Counted from the stretch's first letter, positions 516 through 14,554 are shown. The stretch: DNA of 64,000 bases from Escherichia coli (GCA_005400705.1 GCA_005400705.1_4079.1); one strand, 5' to 3'. Translations and numbers: made by a program. The notes: a model not told the origin generated them from the sequence alone.

Positions 516-1688
516 TTATGGTAAAATAATAGCTTGTAACGAACTCATACCCAATGTTGGGACACTCGCCTGTGGTGCTGGTGCATTCACTTTTGGTGAT
601 GAAACCGCATAAGTCATTCCTGTACCCAAATCTGGATCAAAAACTACAGAACAATAATCCCCATTGTATATAAGTCCATTAGTATATCCTTGTGCACTTT
701 GAATGCATTTCGTGAACGTACCAATGTCAGTAGTGGCATTTATTAAGTTCCTCCCACGGTAGCCACAGGTGTATATGAAATTATCAACACCTATGTACAT
801 ACTCGCAGAACCAGAAGAACTACATAGATAAGACATATAAGCACGCATGTTTTTAGGAGCAACTGACAATGTACCAGCATAGAATTTATTATTCATACTC
901 GAAATATCACCATCACCCAAAGCACCAAAACTCCCCCAACCAGTACCATAATATCTCTTATCACTCAAGAATATAATACAGTTGTTATTACACATCTTGA
1001 CTTGATATATCAATGAAGGATCAACCCCAGGGAATGATTCAGTGTATGTTAGAACAGCCAGATCAGTACTAGCATTACATTGATGATATGTATTAGTACC
1101 AGCGGACAATATTGTACCATCAACTAATAGAATCCTCGAAGTGCCAGTACCAGCAATACAAGCAACAGCATTACCTGTATATATTTGTCTGAAAGTAAAG
1201 AAACCAACAGTCTTACTCCCCTGTCCACTCCAACCAGTATTATCAACACCACATGCCCATACTGAACCATCTTGCATGATCATCATTACACCATAGCGTT
1301 CTATCGAAATATAGACAATCTTCGTAGTATCAACTGCACTAAATCTAGAAGTTATATCAGTCCAAACCTTTACACTCACCGCCGTCGCACCGAAAGTAGG
1401 ATCTTCCCCTGCTATCATTATCCTACCATTGTTAGTCAGATACATTGTCTGACTATAACCAGTACTACAAAACTTAACACTATCAGTCTCTGGAACTTTT
1501 AACCACTCGTTGTAACGTGTTACGTTAGTGTTATTACCTAACTGATAATAGTTATTCATCCCAGATACATATAACACACCATCCTTTATTAAACTATAAG
1601 TCGCACTATAGTCACTACAGGTATAACGTGTACCCACAGGTCGCTCAACGACGTTCCCATAATCAAACATTCTAACAAAAGGTAACAT
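516..1688 (-). CDS. RCC1-like repeat (beta-propeller) protein paralog
   Basis: 390 aa ORF; N-terminus MLPFVRMFDYGN; repeated G-x-N-x-x-G-x-LG-x-G-like motifs (YVSGMNNYYQLGNN, YYGTGWGSFGALGDGD); SD upstream. Confidence 0.7.
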   Translation of the reverse strand: MLPFVRMFDYGNVVERPVGTRYTCSDYSATYSLIKDGVLYVSGMNNYYQLGNNTNVTRYNEWLKVPETDSVKFCSTGYSQTMYLTNNGRIMIAGEDPTFGATAVSVKVWTDITSRFSAVDTTKIVYISIERYGVMMIMQDGSVWACGVDNTGWSGQGSKTVGFFTFRQIYTGNAVACIAGTGTSRILLVDGTILSAGTNTYHQCNASTDLAVLTYTESFPGVDPSLIYQVKMCNNNCIIFLSDKRYYGTGWGSFGALGDGDISSMNNKFYAGTLSVAPKNMRAYMSYLCSSSGSASMYIGVDNFIYTCGYRGRNLINATTDIGTFTKCIQSAQGYTNGLIYNGDYCSVVFDPDLGTGMTYAVSSPKVNAPAPQASVPTLGMSSLQAIILP

Positions 1689-1724
1689 AATTAAATCTCC
1701 AAAATTAAAATAATTAGATAGTAT

Positions 1725-1761
1725 TTACAAAAAATACCAGTACATATTTCAGTACTGGTAT
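1725..1761 (-). terminator. Rho-independent terminator downstream of CDS 1769-2911
   Basis: Inverted repeat ataccagtac/gtactggtat with 8 nt loop, T-run on minus strand. Confidence 0.5.
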
Positions 1762-1768
1762 CGTAGCG

Positions 1769-2911
1769 TTAAAATGGCATCTTAACCTCTTTATATACTA
1801 ATATATCACCGGATAAACCAGGAAACGCAGAACCATTACCACATGCATATATAGTACTATCATTCCACACTGCTTGATGGTAATTGCCTATAGTACATTT
1901 ATAATTCGATAAATCAGTCACACCAGGTGTTAGTACATAATATACTGGTCCACTAGGTAAATTAAAATCAAATCTACCAAAGTAGTTCAAACCAGATGAA
2001 TAGGACTTGTCATTAGCAAATATTACAGTACCATCTTCTGTAAAAGAACTGTGAGAAATGTCTTTGAGATTGTTCACAACACCAGACGGTATTGATGTAT
2101 TCAACGTAAAGGACGTCAATGGTGCTGCACTTGGTGTGTTGTTCGCCGTGTAACCATAATATGCATAACCAGCTACATATACACTCGAATCTGAACAAAA
2201 TAAAAATGCACTCCTATAACCCAACCTAATACTCTCTATAGTCTTACTAAAAGTAACTTTAGTAAAGGTAGGAACTAAACCACTATATCCTACCCCACAT
2301 GTACCAAAATCATTCTTCCCAGTACTGTACAATTCGTTATTATTTGTAAGGTAAAATGACGCAGCAGCACCGCTATCTAAAGTACTGTAAACGTCTTTTA
2401 CATTACTCGCAATCAATTTAAATGCACTCAATACGGTAGCCGAACCATTGTTAGACAGCGTTGTTGAATCCGTGCCTTGTCCTATTGTATATAAATCTCC
2501 AGTACTAGTCAAAACAAATATACCATTAGTCGCCATAACAATTCTGTCATTCTTTAAATTAAATGAACTAAAAAGTGTACTTATATCAGTAAAGGTAGTA
2601 TAACGCCCACTCTGCCCTATACTCGATAAATTCCCACTCAAATAAACCTTATTATCATTACCAACAGCTACATAACAACCCCACCCAGCATATATCTGAT
2701 CAATGCCTTGTATCGGTATTTGTAACCATTCACTACCAGTTACCGAAGCAGTACTTCCAGTTCCAAGTTCACCAGAGTTATTAGCTCCGAATACATATAA
2801 ATTCCCACTATCCGATAAAACAACTGTATTACCAACTCCAGTTTTTATATCCTTGATACCATTCTTAGGAGCAACATTCCCATAATCAAACATTCTAACA
2901 AAAGGTAACAT
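1769..2911 (-). CDS. RCC1-like repeat protein paralog
   Basis: 380 aa ORF; N-terminus MLPFVRMFDYGN; motifs YVFGANNSGELGTGS, YLSGNLSSIGQSG; conserved 5' UTR tataatgaataaaggagg upstream. Confidence 0.7.
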   Translation of the reverse strand: MLPFVRMFDYGNVAPKNGIKDIKTGVGNTVVLSDSGNLYVFGANNSGELGTGSTASVTGSEWLQIPIQGIDQIYAGWGCYVAVGNDNKVYLSGNLSSIGQSGRYTTFTDISTLFSSFNLKNDRIVMATNGIFVLTSTGDLYTIGQGTDSTTLSNNGSATVLSAFKLIASNVKDVYSTLDSGAAASFYLTNNNELYSTGKNDFGTCGVGYSGLVPTFTKVTFSKTIESIRLGYRSAFLFCSDSSVYVAGYAYYGYTANNTPSAAPLTSFTLNTSIPSGVVNNLKDISHSSFTEDGTVIFANDKSYSSGLNYFGRFDFNLPSGPVYYVLTPGVTDLSNYKCTIGNYHQAVWNDSTIYACGNGSAFPGLSGDILVYKEVKMPF

Positions 2912-2944
2912 ATTTCCCTCCTTTATTCATTATACTATATTTAA

Positions 2945-2976
2945 TCAAAAAGAAAAGCCAGTACTTGAGTACTGGC
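2945..2976 (-). terminator. Rho-independent terminator downstream of CDS 2984-4111
   Basis: Hairpin gccagtact-tga-gtactggc (2957-2976) followed on minus strand by T-rich run. Confidence 0.5.
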
Positions 2977-2983
2977 ATAGTTT

Positions 2984-4111
2984 TCAAAAAGGTAAATCAA
3001 TTTGCTTAGTAATAATAGTATCTAACGGTATTGAACACAATGAGAAATTCTTTCCACCCGTATTTTCAGGATTATATCCATTCATCCATACATTATTACC
3101 TTCGTAAAATGTATTCCAGTATAAAGCCCCACTATATCGTGTATTCGAATTGAACGATGGAAAGTTGAATTCTTGGAATGATGTAAAATATGGAATGGAA
3201 CTTGAACTACTTCCCGTAAATGGGGTATACCCAGTTGCTATTAGTTTGTTTGTATCTGCATTAATTAAAAATACAACACTAGTCGAATAGTCCAACGAAT
3301 CAGGATGATATATATTACTCATATCACCTATAGTAAAACCAACATCAAAAACTTTACTATGTGCACCACTACCAGCAAAAGTAGTTCCAGTTGCATATAT
3401 TTTATTATCAGATGTTATCATTACAAAACCAGCACCAGAAACAAAACTGCATTTTATATCATAAGATATATCATCAAACAACGGAACAAATGTGGTTGCA
3501 TCACCCGATGTTGCTTTAACTTGAAAGCTGTTATTTGAACCTGAACCATATACAGTTCCATCGTTTTTAATCTTAAACAATGTATCGCCAAGGTAACCGC
3601 CAAATATATTATCCACATTAGTGTCAAGTACAGTCCACGCTGAAACATAATTTTTATGTCCTAAACCTAATGCACCACTTCGATTCCATCCTCTTCCATA
3701 AAGTGTTCCGTCTTTCATTAATATAAATGCTGTATAACCACATAACATTTTTTTAATTTGGGTAACATCTATACCAGTGAAATACACACCCCAGTCAGTA
3801 TATCCTTGTTGGAAAGTATCAGAATTCGTGAATGCATATGTTGAACCTGAACCATATATTTTATCACCTTTAATAACAACGGAAAACAATCCTAACCATA
3901 AGTCATCAACTTCAGTTGTGATTTGTTGAACTGCTCCTAACGATACAAACTGTGTACTTAAACCCGCATTATAGTTTGAATCTTCACCGTGTGCATATAC
4001 AGTGCCATCTTGCATTAGAAACATTTCAAGAGTGTAACTAACAACACTTTTCTTTATATTATTAACTTCGATTATATTCCCATAATCAAACATTCTAACA
4101 AAAGGTAACAT
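2984..4111 (-). CDS. RCC1-like repeat protein paralog
   Basis: 375 aa ORF; N-terminus MLPFVRMFDYGN; motifs YGRGWNRSGALGLGHK, YGSGSNNSFQ. Confidence 0.7.
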   Translation of the reverse strand: MLPFVRMFDYGNIIEVNNIKKSVVSYTLEMFLMQDGTVYAHGEDSNYNAGLSTQFVSLGAVQQITTEVDDLWLGLFSVVIKGDKIYGSGSTYAFTNSDTFQQGYTDWGVYFTGIDVTQIKKMLCGYTAFILMKDGTLYGRGWNRSGALGLGHKNYVSAWTVLDTNVDNIFGGYLGDTLFKIKNDGTVYGSGSNNSFQVKATSGDATTFVPLFDDISYDIKCSFVSGAGFVMITSDNKIYATGTTFAGSGAHSKVFDVGFTIGDMSNIYHPDSLDYSTSVVFLINADTNKLIATGYTPFTGSSSSSIPYFTSFQEFNFPSFNSNTRYSGALYWNTFYEGNNVWMNGYNPENTGGKNFSLCSIPLDTIITKQIDLPF

Positions 4112-4149
4112 AATTCCCTCCTTTATTCATTATACTTTATTTAATACAA

Positions 4150-4177
4150 ATAAGAATTCCTGTATCGAGTACTGGCA
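4150..4177 (-). terminator. Possible weak terminator hairpin downstream of CDS 4184-5332
   Basis: Imperfect inverted repeat gaattcc/ggcattc around AGTACT; less convincing than the other three. Confidence 0.25.
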
Positions 4178-4183
4178 TTCAAT

Positions 4184-5332
4184 TTATTGTAAAAAGGACA
4201 TATCTACTTCTGTATAACTAAGAATGTTTTGACCAGCAATTCCACCCATTACTACTATTGCATACCCACAATAATATAATTTCCCAGTGTCCGTAAGTAT
4301 AAGTGAACCAGAAGGTGTTCTTACCAAATTACACGAACTATTAAAAGAAGTATACGAAGGAGTATAGGAGTACTGATCAATATTATTACCAACACCTAAT
4401 TGACCACCCCTATTCGAACCAGATGCATAAAGTACTTCATCTGCTTTGACAATATGTGATGCCATGTTACCAACACATGCATATACACCATATACCCCTG
4501 TACTCAATAATGTAGGAGTCTTGTATTGAATATCAGTACTAGTAGATGTTCCACCTGTGCCAAATTCATTACCATATTGTGCTCCGTACTGCTTCCCACA
4601 TGCGTACAAATTATTATCGGACTTAATAAAAAATGTACTCTGATAACTTACATCAAAATCTATAACATCCGAAGAAATCATCGTTACCCCAGTAATCGAA
4701 GTTTGATTACCAGTACCCAACTGGTAGTAATAGTTAAAACCACAACCCCATAAAGTATTATCTTCTCGCAAATAAATGTTACCAACAGCCTTTTTAACAG
4801 ATGTTATAGTACTGACCTTCTTGAAGGTATTAAATGAATCAATGTTAGTACCATCTCCAAAGGAGGATATGTTCGATGCGTTATTAGCACCACAACAATA
4901 TAATGTCCCATCCTTCAGTACTAAATTTACCTTCATATCATTAAAACTGCTCATATACTCAATATCAGATACACTAATACCACCTGATGTTATCCACGTA
5001 GTACAGTCCGTCCATAACGTCTTCCTATCAGTTACCCCAGTAAATGCCTCCGTGTTACCAGTGATAAACACTTTACCAGTACCCTTTTCTTCATACAATT
5101 GACAATCACTACTGTTATCTTCCAATAAAACCCTCTGTACATTCTCTGCACAAAGAATAAATTTACTCGATGCTACACCTGTTCCAGTACCCCAATTCGT
5201 CGCAGAAGATGCATACAACTTATGTGTTAGTGTATCATGCAAATACATAGAACCACTAGAATATATTTTAAAACGCCCAGAGTTGGTAGGTGCTTCATTC
5301 CCATAATCAAACATTCTAACAAAAGGTAACAT
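4184..5332 (-). CDS. RCC1-like repeat protein paralog
   Basis: 382 aa ORF; N-terminus MLPFVRMFDYGN; motifs YASGSNRGGQLGVGNN, YACGKQYGAQYGNEFGTG. Confidence 0.7.
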   Translation of the reverse strand: MLPFVRMFDYGNEAPTNSGRFKIYSSGSMYLHDTLTHKLYASSATNWGTGTGVASSKFILCAENVQRVLLEDNSSDCQLYEEKGTGKVFITGNTEAFTGVTDRKTLWTDCTTWITSGGISVSDIEYMSSFNDMKVNLVLKDGTLYCCGANNASNISSFGDGTNIDSFNTFKKVSTITSVKKAVGNIYLREDNTLWGCGFNYYYQLGTGNQTSITGVTMISSDVIDFDVSYQSTFFIKSDNNLYACGKQYGAQYGNEFGTGGTSTSTDIQYKTPTLLSTGVYGVYACVGNMASHIVKADEVLYASGSNRGGQLGVGNNIDQYSYTPSYTSFNSSCNLVRTPSGSLILTDTGKLYYCGYAIVVMGGIAGQNILSYTEVDMSFLQ

Positions 5333-5370
5333 AATTCCCTCCTTTATTCATTATATCATATTTACCCCAT
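5333..5370 (-). promoter_or_regulatory. Conserved 5' UTR/promoter of the RCC1-like gene (tataat plus SD aaggaggg)
   Basis: Minus-strand tataatgaataaaggaggg immediately upstream of ATG; same block precedes the genes ending at 2911 and 4111. Confidence 0.4.
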
Positions 5371-5375
5371 AACCC

Positions 5376-5404
5376 TTGACATCCTTTCAGTACTGGTGTA
5401 CTAT
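5376..5404 (+). promoter_or_regulatory. Sigma70-like promoter for the plus-strand small-gene array
   Basis: TTGACA (5376-5381), 17 nt spacer containing AGTACT, TACTAT (5399-5404); ATG at 5430. Confidence 0.45.
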
Positions 5405-5429
5405 AGAAGGAATATAAGGAGAACTACAC

Positions 5430-5657
5430 ATGACAGCTACACTTAAGTACTACATTAATACTCTAAATGAACTAGAGTACGCGAAGTTTCTCGCGGATTG
5501 TTCGTGGCTAATAGAGCTAAAAACACATAACAGTACTGGATGTAACCTTATGCTGAACAGTGCACTTGATACCCTTGTAGTGAGTATTTTACACAGCAAC
5601 ATCTGCGTGGATAGCAATAAACAATTATCAAAAATCTTAGTACTGGTAGCTATATGA
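5430..5657 (+). CDS. Family A small protein
   Basis: 75 aa; KYYIN near N-terminus, hydrophobic tail ILVLVAI. Confidence 0.55.
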   Translation: MTATLKYYINTLNELEYAKFLADCSWLIELKTHNSTGCNLMLNSALDTLVVSILHSNICVDSNKQLSKILVLVAI

Positions 5658-5866
5658 ACACTATGAACATTAAACAGTACTACATCGATGCACTACCAAC
5701 AAAAGGTCTACGAGAAAGCCTACTGTATACACAAAATAATTTTATACACTACAAACGTTATCCTAAACTCCTGAACTCGTACAGGAATAATAACATAAGA
5801 AATGCTTTACAAGGGGTAGAAAGTATGCAATACTATTACATCCTTACCCTTTTAATCGAGTACTAA
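5654..5866 (+). CDS. Family A small protein
   Basis: 70 aa; IKQYYIDALP, tail ILTLLIEY; start overlaps previous stop. Confidence 0.6.
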   Translation: MNTMNIKQYYIDALPTKGLRESLLYTQNNFIHYKRYPKLLNSYRNNNIRNALQGVESMQYYYILTLLIEY

Positions 5867-5867
5867 T

Positions 5868-6053
5868 ATGTATAAAGAATTCTACTGTAGTAAGCTGCAC
5901 AAACAATACAGAGATTCATTTCCCAATGAACCTATGGACATGAATAGTCCCTTTTATAATTTTGACTTCAGACTGGAGACACGTTATGCAATAGAACATC
6001 AATTTCCTGAAACTAAGTACTTAGCTATCATGAACCTCATCTTTAAGTTCTAA
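5868..6053 (+). CDS. Family A small protein
   Basis: 61 aa; MYKEFY, tail IMNLIFKF. Confidence 0.6.
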   Translation: MYKEFYCSKLHKQYRDSFPNEPMDMNSPFYNFDFRLETRYAIEHQFPETKYLAIMNLIFKF

Positions 6054-6065
6054 AAGAGTACTATA

Positions 6066-6277
6066 TGAAAACTATGAACATTCATCAGTACTACTTAGAT
6101 ATTCTCCCTAAAGATGTGCAGAACATCCTTAAACAAGAATTCAGTACTTTAAAAAAACCTTAAAAGATCCGCACCGAATGTACTCATCCTGCACCAAATA
6201 AATGTAGTTGATAATATTCTACAAGGTGTACCAGGAACCGAGTACTTTAATATAGTAAGGCTAATTACATTACAATG
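6066..6277 (+). pseudogene. Family A member disrupted by stop/frameshift
   Basis: ATG 6066 gives MKTMNIHQYYLDILP then stop after about 32 aa; family-like C-terminus (YFNIVRLITLQ) continues in another frame to about 6277. Confidence 0.4.
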
Positions 6278-6460
6278 AATCATATAAGCTACTATTACCA
6301 AAAACTATCCGACCGAGACAAGTACAGCCACAACTCCCATGTATGGTACTACAAACGCGGTAGTATAAGGGACAAACAACATTACTTCTGTACTGCTATA
6401 AAAGAAACACTAACAACTAAGTACACGTACAGAGCAGTACTGAAACTTATTGATATGTAA
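6275..6460 (+). CDS. Family A small protein
   Basis: 61 aa; YYYQKL, tail VLKLIDM. Confidence 0.6.
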   Translation: MNHISYYYQKLSDRDKYSHNSHVWYYKRGSIRDKQHYFCTAIKETLTTKYTYRAVLKLIDM

Positions 6461-6470
6461 AGAGAATACT

Positions 6471-6656
6471 ATGAATACATTTGAGTACTATACAAATAAA
6501 CTATCTATGCCAGAAAGATCTCATCTCTATGTGTGGAGAAATGCGTATAAAAGCGGCAATAAACTTATACAAAGAAATTCCCTTACAGTGTGTACAAATT
6601 TAATTAAAGCAGAGTACCGCACATATATTGAAGTACTGAAACTAATCTCTATCTAA
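6471..6656 (+). CDS. Family A small protein
   Basis: Track ORF 6450-6656 trimmed to ATG 6471 (MNTFEYY); tail VLKLISI. Confidence 0.6.
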   Translation: MNTFEYYTNKLSMPERSHLYVWRNAYKSGNKLIQRNSLTVCTNLIKAEYRTYIEVLKLISI

Positions 6657-6664
6657 GGTACTCT

Positions 6665-6844
6665 ATGCAAGAATTCTATATCTATAAACTTCAGCACAAA
6701 GATAGATACAACTATAATAAATTCCAAAGGTACTACACAGTCGGGAACAAAAGAGATAAAAAACGATACTTTCTATCATGTACAGTAGAAGCACAAAACG
6801 AAAAGTACACGTACAGAGAAGTACTGAAACTCATCTCAATCTAA
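6665..6844 (+). CDS. Family A small protein
   Basis: 59 aa, hand-translated (below track cutoff): MQEFYIYKL...REVLKLISI. Confidence 0.55.
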   Translation: MQEFYIYKLQHKDRYNYNKFQRYYTVGNKRDKKRYFLSCTVEAQNEKYTYREVLKLISI

Positions 6845-6852
6845 GGAATAAT

Positions 6853-7032
6853 ATGCAAGAATACTATATAGAACACATAAGCATTAAAGACCGTTTCATG
6901 TACGACACCTTCGTGAAGTACTACAACCTGGCAACTAACAGTACTAAAAATATTAATCTCAATAGCTGCATTCATCACGCACTAACAAAAGATAATCCCT
7001 TCAGGGAAATCCTCGCACTAGCATCTGTATAA
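6853..7032 (+). CDS. Family A small protein
   Basis: Track ORF 6778-7032 trimmed to ATG 6853 (MQEYYIEH); tail ILALASV. Confidence 0.6.
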   Translation: MQEYYIEHISIKDRFMYDTFVKYYNLATNSTKNINLNSCIHHALTKDNPFREILALASV

Positions 7033-7042
7033 AGGAAACCAA

Positions 7043-7702
7043 ATGAAACTTAATGCACACAGCAAACAATACCTTAAGCACTTTAAGTACCTCAACAGTA
7101 TTCAAGCAGAATCTATTACATCTGCATATACGTATCACCCTAATGTACTAAAGAAACGAAATAAAAAGAAAAAATCCAGAAATGTTCTCGTATCTAAGAA
7201 CCTCAAATCGTACTTGAAGAAAAATAATATAGCTCTTGCTTTTATTAATATCTATAATACTGATTTAAAAGTATTGAGTACTAATACCAGCACAAAAGCA
7301 CTAAAGAATGCATCTATCTATATACACATGGATAATATCCCGTGCACTATAATTCTATCTTTCGGGAATGTATACTTCTTCGGGAATTGTAATAGCACCC
7401 ATGATATCAGTACTGCACAATTCCAAATCGGCGATATGTACTGCATGGGTTCAGAAAAAATACACGATAACATGCACTTCTTCCAAAAGCAACGTACTAA
7501 CGAAACTGATACAGTACTGCAATTCCTCAAAGAATTACAAAACAAAGAATTATCCGAGGAAGAAGAATTCATGTACAGTACTGTAATCGATAATCCAGAA
7601 CTCTATAAAAACGCGTACAATCTAACAAAACATGTACAGGAACTTATCAGTACTGATAAGAAATTTCATCACCTCATTACGTATATTTCAAACTATGTAT
7701 AA
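7043..7702 (+). CDS. Hypothetical protein with family C-like motif (EEEFMYSTVID)
   Basis: 219 aa ORF inside the family A array; lysine-rich N-terminal half; C-terminal half has a variant of the family C core. Confidence 0.55.
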   Translation: MKLNAHSKQYLKHFKYLNSIQAESITSAYTYHPNVLKKRNKKKKSRNVLVSKNLKSYLKKNNIALAFINIYNTDLKVLSTNTSTKALKNASIYIHMDNIPCTIILSFGNVYFFGNCNSTHDISTAQFQIGDMYCMGSEKIHDNMHFFQKQRTNETDTVLQFLKELQNKELSEEEEFMYSTVIDNPELYKNAYNLTKHVQELISTDKKFHHLITYISNYV

Positions 7703-7877
7703 AGAATACTACAAAGATAAAATCCCAATGCATCTACAACACCATATACCAAACGTTGCATTGGGTATCAAAGATCACGCAAAGATAATGTTCCAACAAT
7801 GTACTAAGTACACGCTCATATACGATGATAATCCATATATGCTGTACTACGTAGTAATGCTAACATTCAGGTACTAA
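7695..7877 (+). CDS. Family A small protein
   Basis: Track ORF trimmed to ATG 7695 (MYKEYY); tail VVMLTFRY. Confidence 0.6.
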   Translation: MYKEYYKDKIPMHLQHHIPNVALGIKDHAKIMFQQCTKYTLIYDDNPYMLYYVVMLTFRY

Positions 7878-7878
7878 T

Positions 7879-8058
7879 ATGAATACTTATAAAGAATTCT
7901 ACCTCTCGTACCTTAATTCCGATATAGTAACATCCAATACATTCAGTACTAAAATTATCTATAATGAATTAATGAAAGAATGTATTAAAGGTGCTATTAA
8001 CCCTAAAGATACGTATGACTTGTACTATGCAGTACTAACCCTTGTTTTCACGAAATAA
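7879..8058 (+). CDS. Family A small protein
   Basis: 59 aa hand-translated: MNTYKEFYLSYL...YAVLTLVFTK. Confidence 0.55.
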   Translation: MNTYKEFYLSYLNSDIVTSNTFSTKIIYNELMKECIKGAINPKDTYDLYYAVLTLVFTK

Positions 8059-8066
8059 CACATAAT

Positions 8067-8258
8067 ATGAATAACCACAAAGAATACTACATAGAGAAAC
8101 TCCCAATGTATCTCCAACACCTTGTACCAACAGAACCATTGGGTATAGAAAAAAACTACGAAAAAGACTACTTCATTCAGTGCACTAAATCCTCGATATA
8201 TATTGAAGACTATAATCGAGTACTGTATCACATCCTTTTACTAATATATAGGTACTAA
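8067..8258 (+). CDS. Family A small protein
   Basis: 63 aa; MNNHKEYYIEKLP, tail ILLLIYRY. Confidence 0.65.
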   Translation: MNNHKEYYIEKLPMYLQHLVPTEPLGIEKNYEKDYFIQCTKSSIYIEDYNRVLYHILLLIYRY

Positions 8259-8259
8259 T

Positions 8260-8442
8260 ATGCACAAAGAATACTACACACAATTTCTCCCCAGCATTTT
8301 TGAACACTACGCCAGATACAAAGTCCCTATGGATAACGATTTGGCAGTACTGGGATTCAATAACTGCATAGAACGAAGTATAGAAAATAGTAGTAGTTAT
8401 GACCAGCTATATAACACTATCCTACTTATATTCAGGTACTAA
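8260..8442 (+). CDS. Family A small protein
   Basis: 60 aa; MHKEYYTQFLP, tail ILLIFRY. Confidence 0.65.
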   Translation: MHKEYYTQFLPSIFEHYARYKVPMDNDLAVLGFNNCIERSIENSSSYDQLYNTILLIFRY

Positions 8443-8443
8443 T

Positions 8444-8629
8444 ATGCATAAAGAATACTACACACAATTTGTTAAAGGGAACTACAAACATGCCGTACCC
8501 AGAACCCCTTTAAATTCTCATGACCCAAGTACTATATTCTTGTTTAATGACGCAATACGTACAGTACTCAATACTAAAGATGAAGATGTGCAGTACGTAT
8601 TCTTACTATTACTTATATACAGACACTAA
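8444..8629 (+). CDS. Family A small protein
   Basis: Track ORF trimmed to ATG 8444 (MHKEYYTQF); tail LLLLIYRH. Confidence 0.65.
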   Translation: MHKEYYTQFVKGNYKHAVPRTPLNSHDPSTIFLFNDAIRTVLNTKDEDVQYVFLLLLIYRH

Positions 8630-8634
8630 CTAAT

Positions 8635-8844
8635 ATGAATAAAGAACATAAAGAATTCTACTCCAAATACATAAGCCCCTCAGAACAAATGTTTCTAAGG
8701 ACTACTCCACCTTTAAGTACTAATACATTTTTCGGCAGAGTATGCTACAATAATTGTATTCAAATGACTTTAAACGCAAACGAAGATGGTAACAGTACTA
8801 ACCTGTACTCAGGTATCATAGGTATACTATTCCTGTATGAATAA
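8635..8844 (+). CDS. Family A small protein
   Basis: 69 aa; MNKEHKEFY, tail IGILFLYE. Confidence 0.6.
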   Translation: MNKEHKEFYSKYISPSEQMFLRTTPPLSTNTFFGRVCYNNCIQMTLNANEDGNSTNLYSGIIGILFLYE

Positions 8845-9025
8845 TTACAAAGACTTCTATTTGAATACACTACCTACTGTACTTTCTCTAAGTGCTCAAT
8901 GTAAAATCCCGCTGGATAATGCTTACGCCAGATATAGCTATTCCATAACTGTTAATCGATGTATAGAGAATCATTGCAGTACTAACCAGTACTATAACAT
9001 AATCCTACTTATATTCAGGTACTAA
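8837..9025 (+). CDS. Family A small protein
   Basis: 62 aa; MNNYKDFY, tail IILLIFRY. Confidence 0.65.
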   Translation: MNNYKDFYLNTLPTVLSLSAQCKIPLDNAYARYSYSITVNRCIENHCSTNQYYNIILLIFRY

Positions 9026-9026
9026 T

Positions 9027-9209
9027 ATGAATAAAGAACATAAAGAATTCTATATACGAAAACTAACATTCGTCCCCGTAAGAATATATAAAGAATGCGA
9101 CCCAAGATTATACCTATGGCACTTCAATGAGTGCATAAAAGATTCTATATACCATAAGAACTATAAAGAACAATTGTGCTCAGTACTAACACTAGTACTA
9201 TCATATTAA
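9027..9209 (+). CDS. Family A small protein
   Basis: 60 aa; MNKEHKEFY, tail LTLVLSY. Confidence 0.6.
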   Translation: MNKEHKEFYIRKLTFVPVRIYKECDPRLYLWHFNECIKDSIYHKNYKEQLCSVLTLVLSY

Positions 9210-9224
9210 TTAATAGAGAATACT

Positions 9225-9416
9225 ATGTATAAAAACTTCTATATAAGTAAACTAAAAGAAAATGAACAAGTATGGATTAGATCTATAATTCCACTGGCAT
9301 TTAATAGATATGCATTTAACAGATGTACCGAGATTGCTATAGACCCTTATAATATTAAAGAGAATGTACAGTATAATCAGTACTACTATATCTTAATGCT
9401 TATATATAGAAAGTAA
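9225..9416 (+). CDS. Family A small protein
   Basis: 63 aa; MYKNFYISKL, tail ILMLIYRK. Confidence 0.6.
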   Translation: MYKNFYISKLKENEQVWIRSIIPLAFNRYAFNRCTEIAIDPYNIKENVQYNQYYYILMLIYRK

Positions 9417-9693
9417 TTAAACACAAGTAGACAGGGGAAGCTCCTAGTGAACAACCTTTATGTACAGGCGAATTGTTAAAATTCAGCCTGGACAAATGCG
9501 ATCACTAGGATTCTCCCCAGGCTAAACCCCGTAATCATAGGTAGTCATAAGTAATCATATATAAACATTTATATGAGCACCGTAGAATCACAGAATGATT
9601 ATATATGATTCAGTACTGATTAGTATAGACAAGATTGCTCAAGAATGCACGGAAATGTGTGTGAATGATTCAGTACTGATATCCCACTAAGTA

Positions 9694-9720
9694 GGCAGAG
9701 GAAGTCTGCCGTACTTTTTA
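9694..9720 (+). terminator. Terminator-like hairpin
   Basis: ggcag-aggaagt-ctgcc followed by gtacttttt. Confidence 0.4.
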
Positions 9721-9826
9721 GTTTCCAAGCTCCTTTTCCATTTTTCAAATTACATCAAATGTAATCAAAAGTAATCACGCAATGATTAGTACTGAATTAT
9801 TACTTTCACCTTAATTACAATTACCC

Positions 9827-9846
9827 TTTTACCCTTCGGGGTAAAA
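9827..9846 (+). other. Perfect 8 bp stem with UUCG tetraloop
   Basis: ttttaccc-ttcg-gggtaaaa; no T-run after it. Confidence 0.5.
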
Positions 9847-10054
9847 TTCCATTACCCCTTGAGGCTCCAGCAAAAAGTTGGTTAGTACTCCATCCTAAAT
9901 CTCGATCCTAAAAATTTTGGAGTACCTATGAAATAAAAGTTGGATCTTCGAAAGTTGAAATTTACGTTGGGACGTTTATGATTTGTGGGATATAATGATG
10001 TTTGTAGTCGGGTAGTTCTCAAGAATATCAGTACTGAATGATGAAAGAAAGCTA

Positions 10055-10082
10055 TTGACTTTATGATTCAGTACTGTATAAT
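10055..10082 (+). promoter_or_regulatory. Sigma70-like promoter with no ORF downstream
   Basis: TTGACT (10055-10060), 16 nt spacer containing CAGTACTG, TATAAT (10077-10082), then gttttacat; following 150 bp non-coding and ends in a T-run near 10190. Confidence 0.45.
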
Positions 10083-10420
10083 GTTTTACATAGAGAGATG
10101 AGTTGCCGCAAACAATTCATTCACTCTACTTCCTGTCGTGAGACAGTACAGAAAGATAGTTCCTCCTATGGGTGGTACATCTTTTAGAACCTCTTTTTTC
10201 GTAATATGAACAGTACTGATATTAACAGAATGGTGTCAGTACTGATTTTAATTTAATGCATTATGCCACCAGCACAAGCTGGTGGATTCCCTCTAACAGT
10301 ATTCAGTACTACATGATGGTCTTCATCCTCCTAGGGTAACATAGTGAGGGCTATGATGGCAGTACTGAATACTCCCTTTCAAAAGATAGATCTATGGTAT
10401 AGTACTGACGGATTTTGGGC

Positions 10421-10600
10421 GTAGTTACCCTGGATGGATTTTGGACGTAGATATGTCTAGCCCTCCAGAAGTCTGGAAGTAAAGATGGCTATCCATCTAG
10501 ACGGCTAAACGGCTAGATTTCTGGATGGCTGGATGGCTAGACGTTTGGACGGCTAAACGGCTAGATGGTTACACGTCTGGAAGTATAGACGGCTAAATCA
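10421..10600. repeat. Iteron-like cluster of short direct repeats
   Basis: gacggctaaacggctagat x2, gtctggaagta x2, ggattttggRcgtag x2, ctggatgg x3, ggctag x4 within 180 bp. Confidence 0.6.
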
Positions 10601-11220
10601 AAATTTTATTTTGTTTTTTCCAATAGTTCCCCTACCGCGTGGGGATAGTTTCCCCGCAGTATCTGGAGTTAGATTTTTCTGAATCTGGAATCATTATCTT
10701 ATAAACTGGGGGCAATGTCAACCGCCTGGACGGATATTTTTAAAAATTTTTTCAGTACTGAATTTTGGGCGTAACTATGCACCCGGTGGGCTTGAGTCTT
10801 TCTCGACTTGATGGAACTATTATACAGTACTGGAAAAATAAAGCAATACCCTGGAAGCAAAAAAGTTTTAATTAATTTGCTTGCTATCCTGGGCCGGACT
10901 ATGGTACTATATTTCAGTACTGAGAAAGTGCGTTTACCTGCTAGGGTGCGGGAGTGTATCCTTTTTTTATATCTTGAATTTTGGGCGTAATTCCGCACCC
11001 TCTGGGGTTTCCGCTTTCTCGCGTCTATGTAGTAATTATACGCTTTTTCAGGATCAAGTCAATACCTAAAAACAAAATAATTGAAAATAATTTAACGCGT
11101 TTAAACGGCCCGTAAAGCCCTGGAATGATTGGAATGGTGCAAATGTATAGCTTAGGTGTATTAATGCGTTAGAATGCGTCTGAGGCCGTTTTACGGGGTA
11201 TAGGGATGATTTGGTGGATT

Positions 11221-11310
11221 GATTCAGTACTGAATGATAGTACTACTATATAGAAAGATAGTTCCCCTGAATGGTTGCAGTACTGAATGATAGTTCCCCT
11301 ATATAGAAAG
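11221..11310. repeat. Two direct repeats of about 45 bp (cagtactgaatgatag...tatatagaaag)
   Basis: Near-identical tandem copies immediately upstream of the first PeSL-type promoter. Confidence 0.5.
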
Positions 11311-11340
11311 AAAACTATTTTAAAAGTATTTGTAGAAAGT

Positions 11341-11402
11341 ACTTGCAAACTAAGTTTAACGGCGTATAATGTTTTACATCGAGAGCGGGAACACTTCCCG
11401 CT
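11341..11402 (+). promoter_or_regulatory. PeSL-type cassette: sigma70-like promoter plus 5' stem-loop
   Basis: aAGTACTTGCAaact, TATAAT at 11365-11370, gttttacatc, hairpin agcgggaa-cac-ttcccgct (11384-11402). Confidence 0.6.
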
Positions 11403-11425
11403 ACATATTACGAGAGATTAAAACG

Positions 11426-11788
11426 ATGGCGACTCAAATCACTAAAATTATTGCTAACCTGGTTAACTTTCGCGACGAGATGAAAGATCTTCCGGCAGAA
11501 ACGGTAAAAATTCACATTTCAGCTTATCGGGAACTTATTGCAATGTTACCGCTTAAGCGTGAACAATACGCCGCGACCGTGATGCTTGATGCGATGATCC
11601 ATAAGATGATCGCCAGTGATTTAACGATGGTTTATCAGTATATGGGCGAAAATTTCGCGGTGTATAGTAAACCAGTACCAGGAATGGAAAGTACAGAAGT
11701 ATTACACGGTTTAAATTTAAAACAAGATGCATGGGATAATATGCCTCGTTTCCTGGTATGGGCTGACAGTGGCAAGATTTACGAATAA
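11426..11788 (+). CDS. Hypothetical protein
   Basis: Track ORF 11369-11788 trimmed to first ATG after the hairpin (11426, MATQITK); 120 aa. Confidence 0.65.
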   Translation: MATQITKIIANLVNFRDEMKDLPAETVKIHISAYRELIAMLPLKREQYAATVMLDAMIHKMIASDLTMVYQYMGENFAVYSKPVPGMESTEVLHGLNLKQDAWDNMPRFLVWADSGKIYE

Positions 11789-11799
11789 GTTTTAGAAAG

Positions 11800-11861
11800 T
11801 ACTTGCAAACTAAGTTTAAAAGCGTATAATGTTTTACATCAGGTGGGGAATAGTTCCCCAC
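11800..11861 (+). promoter_or_regulatory. PeSL-type cassette
   Basis: agtacTTGCAAact, TATAAT 11825-11830, hairpin gtggggaa-tag-ttccccac. Confidence 0.6.
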
Positions 11862-11881
11862 TATATAAGAGGATTAAAAAA

Positions 11882-12121
11882 ATGGCTAAATCAAAAATGT
11901 TCTTAGGTCACAAAAACAAAACTCATTGGAATGTAAGCCTTTGGATTAATAACGATGAGTCATTGTACCGGTTGGCCCAGGACTTTATTAACGATAGCAC
12001 TAATCGCAATGATGCGGCCCGTCATATGATGTTATTTTTAGAACAGACTGGACAAGATAAAACACCGGACGGATTCAAATATAGCACTACTGCGATCCGT
12101 GCGGCGATGGTTGGAATGTAA
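11882..12121 (+). CDS. Hypothetical protein
   Basis: ATG 11882 (MAKSKMF) after SD aagagga; 79 aa. Confidence 0.65.
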   Translation: MAKSKMFLGHKNKTHWNVSLWINNDESLYRLAQDFINDSTNRNDAARHMMLFLEQTGQDKTPDGFKYSTTAIRAAMVGM

Positions 12122-12134
12122 TAGAATATATTTA

Positions 12135-12170
12135 AAGTACTATCGCAAAAAATGATAGTACTTTATAATA
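12135..12170 (+). promoter_or_regulatory. Promoter variant with AGTACT in spacer (degenerate -35)
   Basis: aaagtactatcgcaaaaaatgatAGTACTttataatag; homologous to the promoter at 23762-23796, which has a TTGACA -35. Confidence 0.4.
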
Positions 12171-12206
12171 GTGTTTTATTCATACACAAACGATAAGGGC
12201 AACAGC

Positions 12207-12473
12207 ATGAATATTAAGTATTTTGCGACGCGTGAACAAGCTCGGATCGCCGCACGCCAGGACGGGGCAACGTTTAAAGATATGGGCGTACAATCGGAAC
12301 GTGGTAAACGTTGGGCCATTATAAAGCGTAGTACCGCCAGATCATTACAGTACTGGTTAGCGGCGTTAAAAAGTCCTGATAGTGTATCGCGTCGAGTGGT
12401 AGAAATAAAGCTCGACCGAAAGGGCAACCGCGTGACCGTGTACCGTACTAAAAAGATAGCAGTACTTGAATAA
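12207..12473 (+). CDS. Hypothetical protein; paralog of 23839-24234
   Basis: ATG 12207 (MNIKYFATREQARIAARQDGATFKDMG...DRKGNRVTVYRTKK) matches KFYATREAARIVAREEGAAFKDMG...DRKGNSVTVFSKRR. Confidence 0.65.
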   Translation: MNIKYFATREQARIAARQDGATFKDMGVQSERGKRWAIIKRSTARSLQYWLAALKSPDSVSRRVVEIKLDRKGNRVTVYRTKKIAVLE

Positions 12474-12540
12474 AAGTACTTGCATACTATGTTTAAAGGC
12501 GTATAATGTTTTACATCGAGAGCGGGAACACTTCCCGCCT
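12472..12540 (+). promoter_or_regulatory. PeSL-type cassette
   Basis: aaagtacTTGCATact, TATAAT 12502-12507, hairpin gcgggaa-cac-ttcccgc. Confidence 0.6.
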
Positions 12541-12559
12541 ATAACCTGGAGTAATAAAA

Positions 12560-12790
12560 ATGACTAATATGTATATGACTGAAGTTAAAACTGTAAAAGA
12601 TACTACCACGAATAAAACTACTTACTTACAGCGGATCTGTGGTGTCTGGCAACGTATCAGCAAAATAAAGTACTATAAATTGACATCACATGCTAACCGT
12701 TCGGATTCATTCAGTACTGAAATAAAAGGTAATAAAGTACACCAATACGGCACTTATTATTATTATAGCCTGGATGCGATTGCAGTATAA
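12560..12790 (+). CDS. Hypothetical Thr/Tyr-rich protein
   Basis: 76 aa ORF after PeSL and SD ggag. Confidence 0.6.
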   Translation: MTNMYMTEVKTVKDTTTNKTTYLQRICGVWQRISKIKYYKLTSHANRSDSFSTEIKGNKVHQYGTYYYYSLDAIAV

Positions 12791-13034
12791 GCAGTTTACA
12801 AATCTTTACAATTGCCGGTATTGACTTATTTTGTCAGTACTGGCATAATGTATTCATTGGCAGATAAGCCGTAGCCCATAGGGTGCGGGAGTGTATCTAT
12901 AGAAAAAGTAGTTTATTACAGTTACAATTGTGCACCCGGTGGGTTAGCTGTTGTCATGGGGTATATTATACCAGTACTGGATAGTGCTGTCAATACCTTT
13001 TTACTATTCAGTACTGAAAACTATTTTTAAAAAG

Positions 13035-13066
13035 TACTTGCAAACTATGTTTAAAGGCGTATAATG
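13035..13066 (+). promoter_or_regulatory. PeSL-type promoter driving a structured leader
   Basis: aaagtacTTGCAAact, TATAAT 13060-13065. Confidence 0.55.
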
Positions 13067-13070
13067 TTTT

Positions 13071-13150
13071 ACATCAGGACGGGGAACGAAATAAGTAACT
13101 TCCCGTTAAGTAGCCCAGGAGTAAGGCACACGAAAAACTCCCCTGATAAA
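13071..13150 (+). ncRNA. Conserved structured RNA element, copy 1 (candidate cis-regulatory leader or small RNA)
   Basis: caggacggggaacgaaataagtaacttcccgttaagtagcccaggagtaaggcacacgaaaaactcccctg; identical copy at 22916-22990, diverged copy about 16030-16110; two predicted stem-loops. Confidence 0.35.
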
Positions 13151-13155
13151 ATAGT

Positions 13156-13183
13156 TTGACAAATGTTTTTAAAAGCGTATAAT
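13156..13183 (+). promoter_or_regulatory. Second sigma70-like promoter after the structured element
   Basis: TTGACA 13156-13161, 16 nt, TATAAT 13178-13183. Confidence 0.5.
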
Positions 13184-13215
13184 ACTTACATCAACTACTG
13201 AATGAGGGTTACAAA

Positions 13216-13827
13216 ATGAAAACTATCACTACTACTACTTTCGTTATGGCTTTTTCTGAATTGAACGCAGAACAACAAACGTCAGCTATCGAACTGGTTC
13301 GGGATCGGGAACGTTCAAGCGGTGATGATTTCTTTTCTGAGTCAGTGATCGAGTACTATAAAGAAACAGTACTACCAGAATATGGAATTGATGACGCTGA
13401 TTTGCAATTCAGTGGTTTTTGGTCGCAGGGTGACGGTGCATCAATCAGTACTGACCACGTTGACGCTGTGAAGTTTTTACGCAAGATTAAAGCATTAACT
13501 AAGTATCGTTCTATCCGTCACCTGCTGAATGAAGATGATTTGGCGATGAGTGTAAAGCGTTCTCACTCCCACTACTCGCATGAAAACACTGTAAGCGGGT
13601 ACATTGAATCGGGGTACACTGATTTAACCGCAAAACAAGAAACGTTAGTTAATGAGCTTGAGGAACTACTCACTGAAACTATTCGTGAATTATCCCGCAA
13701 GTTGTACCGTGATTTAGAGAATGCATATGAGGATCAATTCACTACTGAAAACATTACGGCACTGATTGAGGGTAACGAATATCAATTCAATGTTATTGAT
13801 GGCGTAGTAGAATCTATCGAATATTAA
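13216..13827 (+). CDS. Hypothetical acidic protein
   Basis: 203 aa ORF; SGFWSQGDGASIS motif; family not recognised. Confidence 0.7.
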   Translation: MKTITTTTFVMAFSELNAEQQTSAIELVRDRERSSGDDFFSESVIEYYKETVLPEYGIDDADLQFSGFWSQGDGASISTDHVDAVKFLRKIKALTKYRSIRHLLNEDDLAMSVKRSHSHYSHENTVSGYIESGYTDLTAKQETLVNELEELLTETIRELSRKLYRDLENAYEDQFTTENITALIEGNEYQFNVIDGVVESIEY

Positions 13828-13844
13828 TTCAGTACTGAATCAAT

Positions 13845-13863
13845 GGCGGGAGTGGTTCCCGCC
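13845..13863 (+). promoter_or_regulatory. 5' stem-loop without adjacent promoter
   Basis: ggcggga-gtgg-ttcccgcc then SD aggag and ATG 13884. Confidence 0.45.
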
Positions 13864-13883
13864 TATAACCAGGAGTAAGCATC

Positions 13884-14117
13884 ATGATCGAACAAATTCA
13901 AACGACCACAAGCCGGAGCGGAACGAAAGTACATTACATCGCTGATACTGATAAAGGTGTACCCTATTGTGCTGTACACGTAAATACTGACGGTGACTAT
14001 TGGTTAACTGTATACGGGCGTTACTCGTTTGCTTTTAGTGCACATTGTAAGATCCTGGAAGTAGTGAAGCCTACCGGTAAGAATATCACGCCGGGAAAAT
14101 GTTTTACTAAGCACTAA
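13884..14117 (+). CDS. Hypothetical protein; paralog of 15039-15275
   Basis: 77 aa; shared GVPYCAVHVNT(D/E)G(D/N)YW(L/F)TVYG...PTGKNIT. Confidence 0.7.
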   Translation: MIEQIQTTTSRSGTKVHYIADTDKGVPYCAVHVNTDGDYWLTVYGRYSFAFSAHCKILEVVKPTGKNITPGKCFTKH

Positions 14118-14118
14118 A

Positions 14119-14185
14119 AAGTACTTGCATACTAAGTTTAAAAGCGTATAATACTTTATATCGAGGCGGGGGAATGGTTCCCGCC
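14119..14185 (+). promoter_or_regulatory. PeSL-type cassette
   Basis: aaagtacTTGCATact, TATAAT 14147-14152, hairpin ggcggggga-atgg-ttcccgcc. Confidence 0.6.
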
Positions 14186-14203
14186 TTTACTGAGGATTAT
14201 CTA

Positions 14204-14491: not shown

Positions 14492-14554
14492 GTACTTGCA
14501 ATTAGTTTTCAGTACTGTATAATGGTTTACATCAAAGGGAGAAATGGTTCTCCC
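14490..14554 (+). promoter_or_regulatory. PeSL-type cassette
   Basis: agtacTTGCAAttagttttcAGTACTgTATAAT, hairpin gggagaa-atgg-ttctccc. Confidence 0.6.

Follow-up and report, generated by a model that had tools for sequence, protein, structure and literature searches.

Why should a jumbo coliphage keep a tandem run of about 17 small genes close to the end of its genome, and what might the products do? The question is raised by a stretch of 64,000 nucleotides from an Escherichia coli assembly (GCA_005400705.1), hereafter the window. The DNA is that of an Asteriusvirus, a 121Q/PBECO4-like jumbo coliphage, with 90-97% identity to 34 Asteriusvirus records over the array region. Position 1 of the fEgEco12 genome aligns at window position 9690, the approximate start of the direct terminal repeat (DTR), which is 20,993 bp long in fEgEco12 (PMC13070987). 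The array, referred to here as family A, lies where the genome's unique segment ends, and 274 bp separate it from the DTR. It is co-located and co-oriented with the terminal-repeat genes and two other large phage-specific families (B and C).

Positions 5376-9720 make up a single, closely packed operon whose genes all read along the plus strand. Its 18 genes are 16 intact small ORFs (59-75 aa), one frameshifted copy and one 219-aa gene; the small genes amount to 15 clear paralogues, one possible paralogue (A1) and the frameshifted copy (A4). The tandem family of about 18 small genes given in a preliminary description of this DNA is confirmed, both in its ORFs and in a resemblance beyond chance. 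The features are as follows.

5376-5404, plus strand: candidate sigma70-type promoter, TTGACA-17-TACTAT, with CAGTACTG in the spacer; 10/12 matches in a consensus scan
5430-5657, plus strand: A1, 75 aa, possible distant member; hhalign against the core P = 1.5e-3, 62 columns
5654-5866, plus strand: A2, 70 aa, A2/A4 subfamily; subfamily against the core by hhalign P = 1.6e-5, 61 columns
5868-6053, plus strand: A3, 61 aa, core; phrog_11711 E = 6.6e-15, leave-one-out HMM E = 4.3e-9
6065-6278, plus strand: A4, broken paralogue of A2 with an extra A in an A-run near 6150, from alignment with intact orthologues
6275-6460, plus strand: A5, 61 aa, subfamily s2; leave-one-out HMM E = 2.4e-13
6471-6656, plus strand: A6, 61 aa, subfamily s2; leave-one-out HMM E = 8.5e-8
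6665-6844, plus strand: A7, 59 aa, subfamily s2; leave-one-out HMM E = 1.9e-20
6853-7032, plus strand: A8, 59 aa, subfamily s2; leave-one-out HMM E = 5.7e-11
7043-7702, plus strand: single-copy gene of 219 aa with a lysine-rich stretch and the motif EEEEFMYSTVID; phrog_29152 E = 3.8e-116
7695-7877, plus strand: A9, 60 aa, core, starting 8 nt inside the 219-aa gene; phrog_11711 E = 3.1e-22
7879-8058, plus strand: A10, 59 aa, core; phrog_11711 E = 4.5e-6, leave-one-out HMM E = 2.2e-9
8067-8258, plus strand: A11, 63 aa, core, the modelled sequence (AlphaFold pLDDT 89.5); phrog_11711 E = 6e-28
8260-8442, plus strand: A12, 60 aa, core; phrog_11711 E = 2e-24
8444-8629, plus strand: A13, 61 aa, core; phrog_11711 E = 5.1e-10
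8635-8844, plus strand: A14, 69 aa, core; phrog_11711 E = 4.9e-9
8837-9025, plus strand: A15, 62 aa, core; phrog_11711 E = 2.5e-14
9027-9209, plus strand: A16, 60 aa, core; phrog_11711 E = 1.5e-6
9225-9416, plus strand: A17, 63 aa, core, last gene of the operon; phrog_11711 E = 7.1e-24
9417-9720, plus strand: structured 3′ region, with a long hairpin at about 9434-9518 and a terminator-like hairpin plus U-run at 9691-9720

The candidate promoter, assigned by consensus match only, is kept in nine lineages and is followed by AAGGAG and the start codon of A1. The A-operon and the terminal-repeat genes have this promoter class with its CAGTACTG spacer element in common, and the palindrome, as yet unexplained, saturates the phage genome; a literature search on CAGTACTG/AGTACT returned nothing relevant. 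Genes within the array are spaced by -8 to +15 nt, the start of A2 overlaps the stop of A1 (ATGA), and five junctions read ...TAC TAA T ATG, an arrangement consistent with translational coupling. The codons of the C-terminal R-Y (E-Y in A2) provide the next cistron with an AGG/GAG Shine-Dalgarno-like element. Downstream, the 3′ region folds with z = -5.1 relative to shuffles, its terminator-like site coming from a consensus scan; an Rfam search of 5200-11500 gave no match. Internal promoters were rejected, as weak consensus matches in the array were fewer than in shuffles (20 versus 28.8 ± 5.4). Minus-strand ORFs overlapping the array were likewise rejected as genes because the selection signal sits in the plus-strand frames.

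The small genes consist of a core of 10 (A3, A9-A17) and two divergent subfamilies, A5-A8 (s2) and A2/A4. All ten core members match PHROG 11711 over their full length (E = 1.5e-6 to 6e-28). This group has no assigned function and covers the core only; A1, A2, A4 and A5-A8 match neither it nor any other PHROG at E ≤ 0.01. In leave-one-out HMM searches against 551 decoys, six-frame ORFs from the same AT-rich window, every core and A5-A8 member ranked first, at E of about 1e-8 to 1e-20 as against at least 0.024 for the best decoy; the members do align beyond chance, as had been proposed. Profile-profile comparison by hhalign joined the core end to end to s2 (P = 3.3e-6, 51-56 columns) and to A2/A4 (P = 1.6e-5, 61 columns), while controls with family B and reversed profiles gave P of at least 0.017 over short stretches. 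Judged by sequence, the core, A5-A8 and A2/A4 can be grouped as one superfamily, whose subfamily links are of the profile-profile kind only. A1 is a possible member, its alignment with the core shrinking to the 14 N-terminal columns unless an extra divergent orthologue is included.

A conserved N-terminal helix (KEYY..L) and a C-terminal helix (Y..ILxLIYRY) make up the family signature. The motifs originally ascribed to all members, KE(F/Y)Y and ILLLI(F/Y)RY, hold for the core of 10 but not for the subfamilies, which carry variants: (E/Q)(F/Y)Y and VLKLISI in A5-A8, QYY and ILTLLIEY in A2/A4. Between these ends, the loop and helix 3 are strongly divergent among paralogues, and pairwise identity among members is 17-45%. 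An exhaustive profile search retrieved 27 clusters only, all of them stand-alone proteins of 59-69 aa. Searches of Pfam, NCBIfam, PADLOC and PDB sequences gave nothing significant for any array member or the 219-aa gene, and no similarity was found between family A and known anti-defence or takeover proteins. In its AlphaFold model A11 has four helices, with confidence highest in helices 3 and 4, and a structure search with the family A model found no PDB or BFVD analogue outside the family. Family A proteins, tyrosine-rich and about 60 aa long, are predicted to be soluble and to fold as four short helices.

Are the individual copies maintained? Orthologues compared with seven phages give omega of 0.21-0.41, which indicates purifying selection, and the values are similar along the protein (N-terminal 0.32, middle 0.29, C-terminal 0.24). 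Between orthologues the middle is no less conserved than the ends, and thus each copy keeps its own specific sequence. Gene lengths and reading frames have been retained over ∼30% protein divergence. At the same time, the array turns over. Nine related genomes, otherwise 90-99% identical, carry 16-22 small genes, and in six close relatives a 232-bp deletion has destroyed both A9 and A10. For A4, some relatives have an intact copy, this genome a frameshifted one, and others only a 74-nt 3′ remnant left by a deletion. The copy number range, deletions and remnant, together with mosaic paralogues, bear out the birth-and-death evolution suggested earlier. That single copies are dispensable in relatives fits redundancy, and equally low functional importance.

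A4 had been described as broken by a stop and a frameshift. The frameshift stands: compared with the intact 70-aa orthologues in fEgEco12 and BF17, to which A4 is otherwise ∼93% identical, it has a run of seven A where they have six, and the repaired product is 70 aa. The stop codon is a mere consequence of this one-A shift and no separate lesion. The break could be either a pseudogene or a homopolymer sequencing error; independent assemblies with the same frameshift were sought, and the closest relatives all lack A4.

The 219-aa gene had been taken for an insertion that carries a family C-like motif. In every relative it has the same site, with the A5-A8 block on one side and the core block on the other, even in a lineage where its identity is only 68%, and it is thus long established there and not newly inserted. 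Its orthologues occur only in Asteriusvirus-type genomes, and its AlphaFold model (pLDDT 38) is unusable. The gene does carry the short motif EEEEFMYSTVID, and its profile aligns with the family C signature (EExxFQxS) at P = 3.3e-5 and a probability of 72%, in a match spanning just 18-22 columns; across 60 column shuffles P stayed at 0.05 or above. Full membership does not follow: the family C HMM left the gene below its reporting range, and jackhmmer searches started from 51 family C seeds, or from the 219-aa gene itself, never linked the two. All 37 aligned members of family C (38-64 kb) keep the F and Q of the signature, whereas the 219-aa gene and all 14 orthologues have F-M in place of F-Q. 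The family B array does contain two clear family C members, so the families intersperse. The proposed exchange between arrays is weakly supported, the 219-aa gene having only a short motif in common with family C, in which the invariant Q is replaced by M.

How might units be gained and lost? The paralogues are mosaics, and the junction DNA is the best conserved DNA of the array. Synonymous-codon identity exceeds expectation at the termini only (N-terminus 0.72 versus 0.56; C-terminus 0.53 versus 0.39; middle 0.44 versus 0.45). Within genes, AGTACT occurs 30 times as against 8.2 ± 2.4 in synonymous shuffles, overlapping (K/Q/E)YY and (E/A)VL codons. Terminal conservation therefore lies partly at the DNA level, and the conservation of the 'protein motifs' does not all stem from protein function. 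The junctions and short (A/G)TACTA words could supply the homology for unequal recombination, by which units would be added, removed and shuffled. In a bolder version, which we regard as distinctly unlikely, the array would be a device for cassette-style diversification that shuffles mini-binders against variable host defence proteins. Its recombination substrate would be the C-terminal helix codons, stop, start and N-terminal helix codons, kept similar between units, and the phage population would shuffle, gain and drop hypervariable middles to yield a fast-evolving repertoire. Such an array would be a bacteriophage counterpart to the terminal multigene families of large eukaryotic DNA viruses.

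The best explanation of the locus, to which we give an even chance, is an early operon of small soluble host-protein binders whose units are turned over by recombination. The proteins would be made early by host RNA polymerase and would together form a repertoire of small proteins that bind host targets, in host takeover or anti-defence; the two end helices may act as a scaffold and the variable middle may set target specificity. Two marks of an early module are present, a sigma70-type promoter (by consensus match only) and a position beside the terminal repeat. In CBB, a related phage, a block of short ORFs with RpoD-like promoters adjoins the terminal repeat and is suspected to hold early host-takeover genes (PMC5259590). 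Family A proteins are absent from the virion proteome table of phAPEC6 (PMC7247149), and a literature search found no Asteriusvirus transcriptome.

Among the competing accounts, tail-anchored or membrane-associated proteins, such as superinfection-exclusion or lysis-timing factors, would explain C-termini rich in I, L, F and Y. The hydrophobic tail is no artefact of AT-rich codons: its position is conserved, and the leave-one-out HMM scores depend in part on it. The membrane-anchor reading nonetheless fails because no copy has a hydrophobic segment of transmembrane length, taken as about 18 residues or more: the maximal 19-residue Kyte-Doolittle mean is 0.17-1.28 across members (-0.37 in A7) against a usual threshold of ∼1.6, and the longest apolar run is 2-8 residues. 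The tails moreover finish in charged or polar residues (R-Y, K, E), AlphaFold packs them as helix 4 of a compact small domain, and there is no signal peptide-like N-terminus, which leaves a membrane role highly improbable. It is quite improbable, too, that the shared termini reflect chiefly signals in the nucleic acid, namely AGTACT sites and junctions for translational re-initiation, and not features of the protein. The conserved junctions, the synonymous excess at the termini and the abundance of AGTACT all favour such signals, but many copies keep the protein motifs with different codons (F/Y and I/L/V swaps), subfamilies with other junction DNA share the helix pattern in end-to-end profile alignments, and model confidence peaks in helices 3 and 4. 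A nucleic-acid signal probably adds to protein-level constraint without replacing it.

The two remaining accounts concern what the proteins are for. Tandem duplication was proposed by Hua et al. as a route to jumbo-genome expansion (PMC5646251), and the array could be near-neutral filler that enlarged the genome to fit a larger capsid, with copies of little individual function. Copies frameshifted or deleted in near-identical genomes would suit this, as would the absence of functional homology; we still think it unlikely, given omega of 0.2-0.4 that includes the paralogue-specific middle, the retained lengths and frames, the confident fold prediction and the conserved promoter. A phage-internal role, in which the mini-proteins bind phage components or DNA as small regulators, chaperone-like adaptors or partners of the multigene families, seems a shade less likely again. 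The shared location and orientation with phage-specific families and terminal-repeat genes speak for it, as do several basic members (pI 9.2-9.6) and a genome-wide palindrome that would need a reader protein. Against it are the spread of pI from 5.5 to 9.6, the lack of a recognisable DNA-binding motif and a copy turnover more rapid than is usual for core regulatory parts.

SPO1 and T5 have early host-takeover modules next to their terminal repeats, which we take to be comparable to the proposed operon of host-protein binders. The suspected takeover module of CBB (PMC5259590) resembles it in its many short ORFs without known function, host-type promoters and placement in or next to a long direct terminal repeat. 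These modules hold mostly unrelated single genes, whereas family A is a paralogous family whose early timing is inferred only. Paralogues near genome ends, gain and loss of copies between close isolates, and individually dispensable copies also characterize the MGF families of ASFV and the terminal host-range genes and 'gene accordions' of poxviruses. The likeness is an analogy only, with no sequence or structural relationship, a bacterial host and much smaller proteins; that family A may counter host immunity is a proposal. Novelty is modest, as tandem arrays in 121Q have been reported, including one of more than 30 genes (Hua et al. 2017, PMC5646251). Lineage-specific tandem expansion of small genes is shared with the 121Q/G arrays (PMC5646251) and the zinc-ribbon expansion of phage G (Iyer et al. 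2021, PMC7824862). The family A array of ∼17 genes is not among the systems described there, and its members are far more diverged (17-45% identity) and without a zinc ribbon or known domain.

Three tandem families of small genes without known function occupy ∼58 kb of the window around the terminal repeat, and a sizeable share of a 350-kb phage genome is thus unexplained. Of these families, A lends itself best to study, with products of 60 aa, a confidently predicted fold without known relative, a conserved middle segment specific to each paralogue and natural knock-outs among relatives. Should the proteins not target the host, the membrane-anchor idea is still corrected and the genes are shown to be under-annotated in many GenBank records. 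If they are host-targeting effectors, the array would yield, in compact form, new inhibitors directed at E. coli proteins or at defence systems, and would be a clear bacterial-virus case of arms-race copy-number evolution.

The stretch at 5400–9500 matches 34 phage records at 80–97% identity, all of them 121Q/PBECO4-type jumbo phages of Escherichia or Salmonella (genus Asteriusvirus); the window is therefore part of a ~350 kb Asteriusvirus genome. In 121Q, the counterpart of the family A array appears in the annotation as 17 'hypothetical proteins' and lies downstream of a divergent RCC1-like gene set. The window likewise carries four tandem paralogous RCC1-like/WD40_RLD genes (516–5332, minus strand, 375–390 aa). 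They are oriented away from the family A operon, and their phAPEC6 homologues are virion proteins (PMC7247149). The genome termini of the related phage fEgEco12 were determined experimentally and include a direct terminal repeat of 20,993 bp (PMC13070987). Position 1 of that genome aligns to window position 9690 and the end of its repeat to ~29,680; thus, no gene block separates family A from the right-hand terminal repeat. Higher G+C in 10–30 kb of the window agrees with this layout, and family B begins ~70 bp past the repeat. The features discussed below are as follows.

5376–5404, plus strand: sigma70-type site matching consensus (TTGACA, 17 nt, TACTAT), then AAGGAG and the A1 start
5430–9416, plus strand: family A, with 16 intact small ORFs (59–75 aa), one broken copy (A4) and a 219-aa gene
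9691–9720, plus strand: hairpin and U-run at the end of the structured region downstream of A17
10467–10594: 8-bp-periodic repeat block (GGATGGCT / AGACGGCT / AAACGGCT)
29751–37306: family B, ~30 tandem genes of 64–94 aa; (L)GTNYQ motif; phrog_4148 (no assigned function)
38016–63687, 35687–36028 and 36557–36874: family C, ~37–50 tandem genes of 100–230 aa; E-E-x-(Y/F/L)-F-Q-x-S with F-Q invariant

The ORFs are found as the preliminary description had them, namely a tandem family of ~18 small genes with a decayed copy and a larger gene. The KE(F/Y)Y starts and ILL(L)I(F/Y)RY-like tails that it ascribed to the family hold for a core of ten ORFs (A3, A9–A17), which share N-terminal KE(F/Y)Y, a central F-x-x-C-(T/I) and the tail Y-x-I-L-x-L-I-(F/Y)-R-Y. 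All ten match PHROG 11711 (no assigned function). In leave-one-out tests against 551 decoy ORFs drawn from all six reading frames of this AT-rich window, each core member and each of A5–A8, scored within their own subfamily, ranked first (E from 1e-8 to 1e-20; best decoy at least 0.024). Because members outrank all decoys, their resemblance is not an artefact of composition. The three subfamilies (core, A5–A8 and A2/A4) are too diverged to detect each other by HMM-to-sequence search. Once orthologues from one metagenomic lineage and eight phages had been added to the profiles, hhalign aligned the core end to end with A5–A8 (P=3.3e-6) and with A2/A4 (P=1.6e-5); controls (family B, reversed profiles) gave P of at least 0.017 over short stretches. 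Family B itself is unrelated to family A by hhalign (P of at least 0.02). A1, at only P=1.5e-3, is possibly a further member.

Searched exhaustively with the family profile, 1.84 billion representative proteins yielded only 27 clusters, all stand-alone proteins of 59–69 aa. By tblastn, the family occurs in 36 phage records, all from Escherichia or Salmonella phages, with Asteriusvirus records ranking top. Clear family A genes lack an annotated CDS in many GenBank Asteriusvirus records (SP27, Sharanji, slurp01, PBECO4, EC.P1 and others; tblastn), so public annotation under-counts the family.

AlphaFold2, given a 63-sequence alignment, produced a confident model (mean pLDDT 89.5) whose four helices span residues 3–9, 14–17, 30–45 and 49–62. 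The C-terminal tail had been suggested as a possible membrane anchor, a reading that weak hydrophobicity in all members speaks against: none has a window near transmembrane strength (maximum 19-residue Kyte-Doolittle mean 1.28; longest apolar run 8 residues). The 'hydrophobic tail' therefore forms the last of the helices in a small, soluble domain. Tyr is unusually frequent in these proteins (11.4%), whose pI spans 5.5 to 9.6.

The promoter candidate at 5376–5404 contains CAGTACTG in its spacer, as does a promoter class scattered across 10–29 kb, and is kept in nine lineages, one of them with a different first gene. Neighbouring family A genes are spaced −8 to +15 nt apart. At five junctions the sequence is TAC-TAA-T-ATG, which places AGG/GAG, from the R-Y codons of the preceding gene (E-Y in A2), 9–11 nt upstream of the next start. 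Signal for internal promoters in the array is no higher than chance, and 3′ of A17 the RNA shows strong structure (z=-5.1).

AGTACT, a palindrome, is found 278 times in the whole window, where base composition predicts ~21.5, and CAGTACTG is found 71 times against ~0.6 expected, for example at 5388, 9611, 9671, 10029, 10069, 10211, 10237, 14510, 18918 and 26388. Many sigma70-like promoters have it in their spacer, directly 5′ of the -10, and it also lies within genes in all three frames. Family A genes contain 30 copies against 8.2 ± 2.4 in synonymous-codon shuffles; 36–44 kb has nearly none. The literature searched offered no explanation. The ~1.95 kb at 9417–11368, which include the start of the terminal repeat (~9690), hold no convincing ORF and no Rfam match. 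They contain 12 copies of CAGTACTG, the majority in the form (A)TGATTCAGTACTGA, and the 8-bp-periodic block at 10467–10594; these are candidate terminus, packaging or origin elements. Promoter-plus-leader modules recur before many terminal-repeat-region genes (10055–28400, e.g. 14496, 18904, 21773, 26374): TTG(A/C)xx, 8–9 nt, CAGTACTG, (T)ATAAT, then a conserved 'catcaaggggagaa...ttctcccc' hairpin. In ORF lists they surface as the recurring pseudo-peptides MFYIERGK and MVLPGNEE.

Nine related genomes carry 16–22 small genes each in a common overall order (A1, A2/A4 type, core, A5–A8 block, 219-aa gene, core block), with some units absent from the window and some window units absent from relatives. 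A4, a paralogue of A2 starting at 6065, is absent from the closest relatives and deleted from 121Q, JP4 and SP27, where a 74-nt 3′ remnant stays. In the window it differs from the intact fEgEco12 and BF17 genes (70 aa) by an additional A in a homopolymer (seven against six) and is ~93% identical elsewhere; of the stop and frameshift reported at 6066–6277, only the frameshift is a separate lesion, as the stop follows from it. The break could be an inactivating mutation that arose very recently, or a sequencing error in the homopolymer. Six independent assemblies, 97–99% identical to the window, share a 232-bp deletion equivalent to 7715–7947, which fuses A9 codon 6 to mid-A10 at ATACTA/GTACTA microhomology and destroys both genes (product MYKEY-stop); a sister assembly retains both.

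Paralogues are also mosaic. A12 is nearest A13 in the first block (63%) and A15 in the last (82%), identity between A9 and A11 drops from 81% in the first block to 56% in the final one, and A14 and A16 share an identical 32-nt start. DNA conservation peaks across gene junctions, and synonymous codon identity between paralogues exceeds expectation at the termini only (N-terminus 0.72 vs 0.56; C-terminus 0.53 vs 0.39; middle 0.44 vs 0.45). Together, copy gain and loss, the remnant, the deletion, mosaicism and junction conservation provide good support for birth-and-death evolution, as first proposed, with recombination among units.

The 219-aa gene (7043–7702) had been taken for an insertion. 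A recent insertion is not borne out: this single-copy gene, restricted to this phage group, keeps its position in all genomes examined, even where its identity falls to 68%. It has no match in Pfam, NCBIfam or PADLOC, and its structure model reaches pLDDT 38. A family C-like motif had been ascribed to it. In profile-profile comparison, its EEEEFMYSTVID segment does align with the family C signature (P=3.3e-5; shuffles at least 0.05) over ~20 columns only, but M stands where the family has its invariant Q, and the two are left unconnected both by jackhmmer and by the family C HMM; the gene is possibly a highly diverged family C relative. Two family C members sit within the family B array, and the copies EEMYFQGS, EEGYFQGS and EENYFQLS strikingly resemble a TEV/NIa-type protease site (ENLYFQ-G/S); the motif may be a site of cleavage or a structural element. 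A 200-aa gene in the family C array (50292–50894) is clearly related to a 105-aa gene of the terminal-repeat region (14174–14491; jackhmmer E=3.4e-44), so the two blocks have genes in common.

Tandem arrays in 121Q had already been noted (PMC5646251), and the core family was known as a PHROG. The advances made here are modest: three subfamilies united into one family, a predicted fold without known relative, the rejected membrane anchor, placement relative to the terminal repeat, conservation centred on junctions, and documented gain and loss.

A near-neutral 'filler' reading of the array (PMC5646251) seems unlikely to us. Pooled dN/dS against seven phages is 0.21–0.41, with omega of 0.32 in the first 12 codons, 0.29 in the middle and 0.24 in the last 14. 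The middle segment is the most divergent part between paralogues, yet is constrained between orthologues like the conserved ends; each copy thus retains its own specific sequence. Family A proteins are absent from the published phAPEC6 virion proteome table (PMC7247149). In the related phage CBB, a block of short ORFs that carries RpoD-like promoters and adjoins the terminal repeat is suspected to hold early host-takeover genes (PMC5259590). Family A combines a conserved, predicted host-type promoter, a location next to the terminal repeat, tightly coupled genes, mini-proteins that are soluble, middles that are specific to each paralogue and conserved, and rapid turnover of units. We infer that its genes would be expressed early and that their products would form a set of small proteins that each bind host targets.
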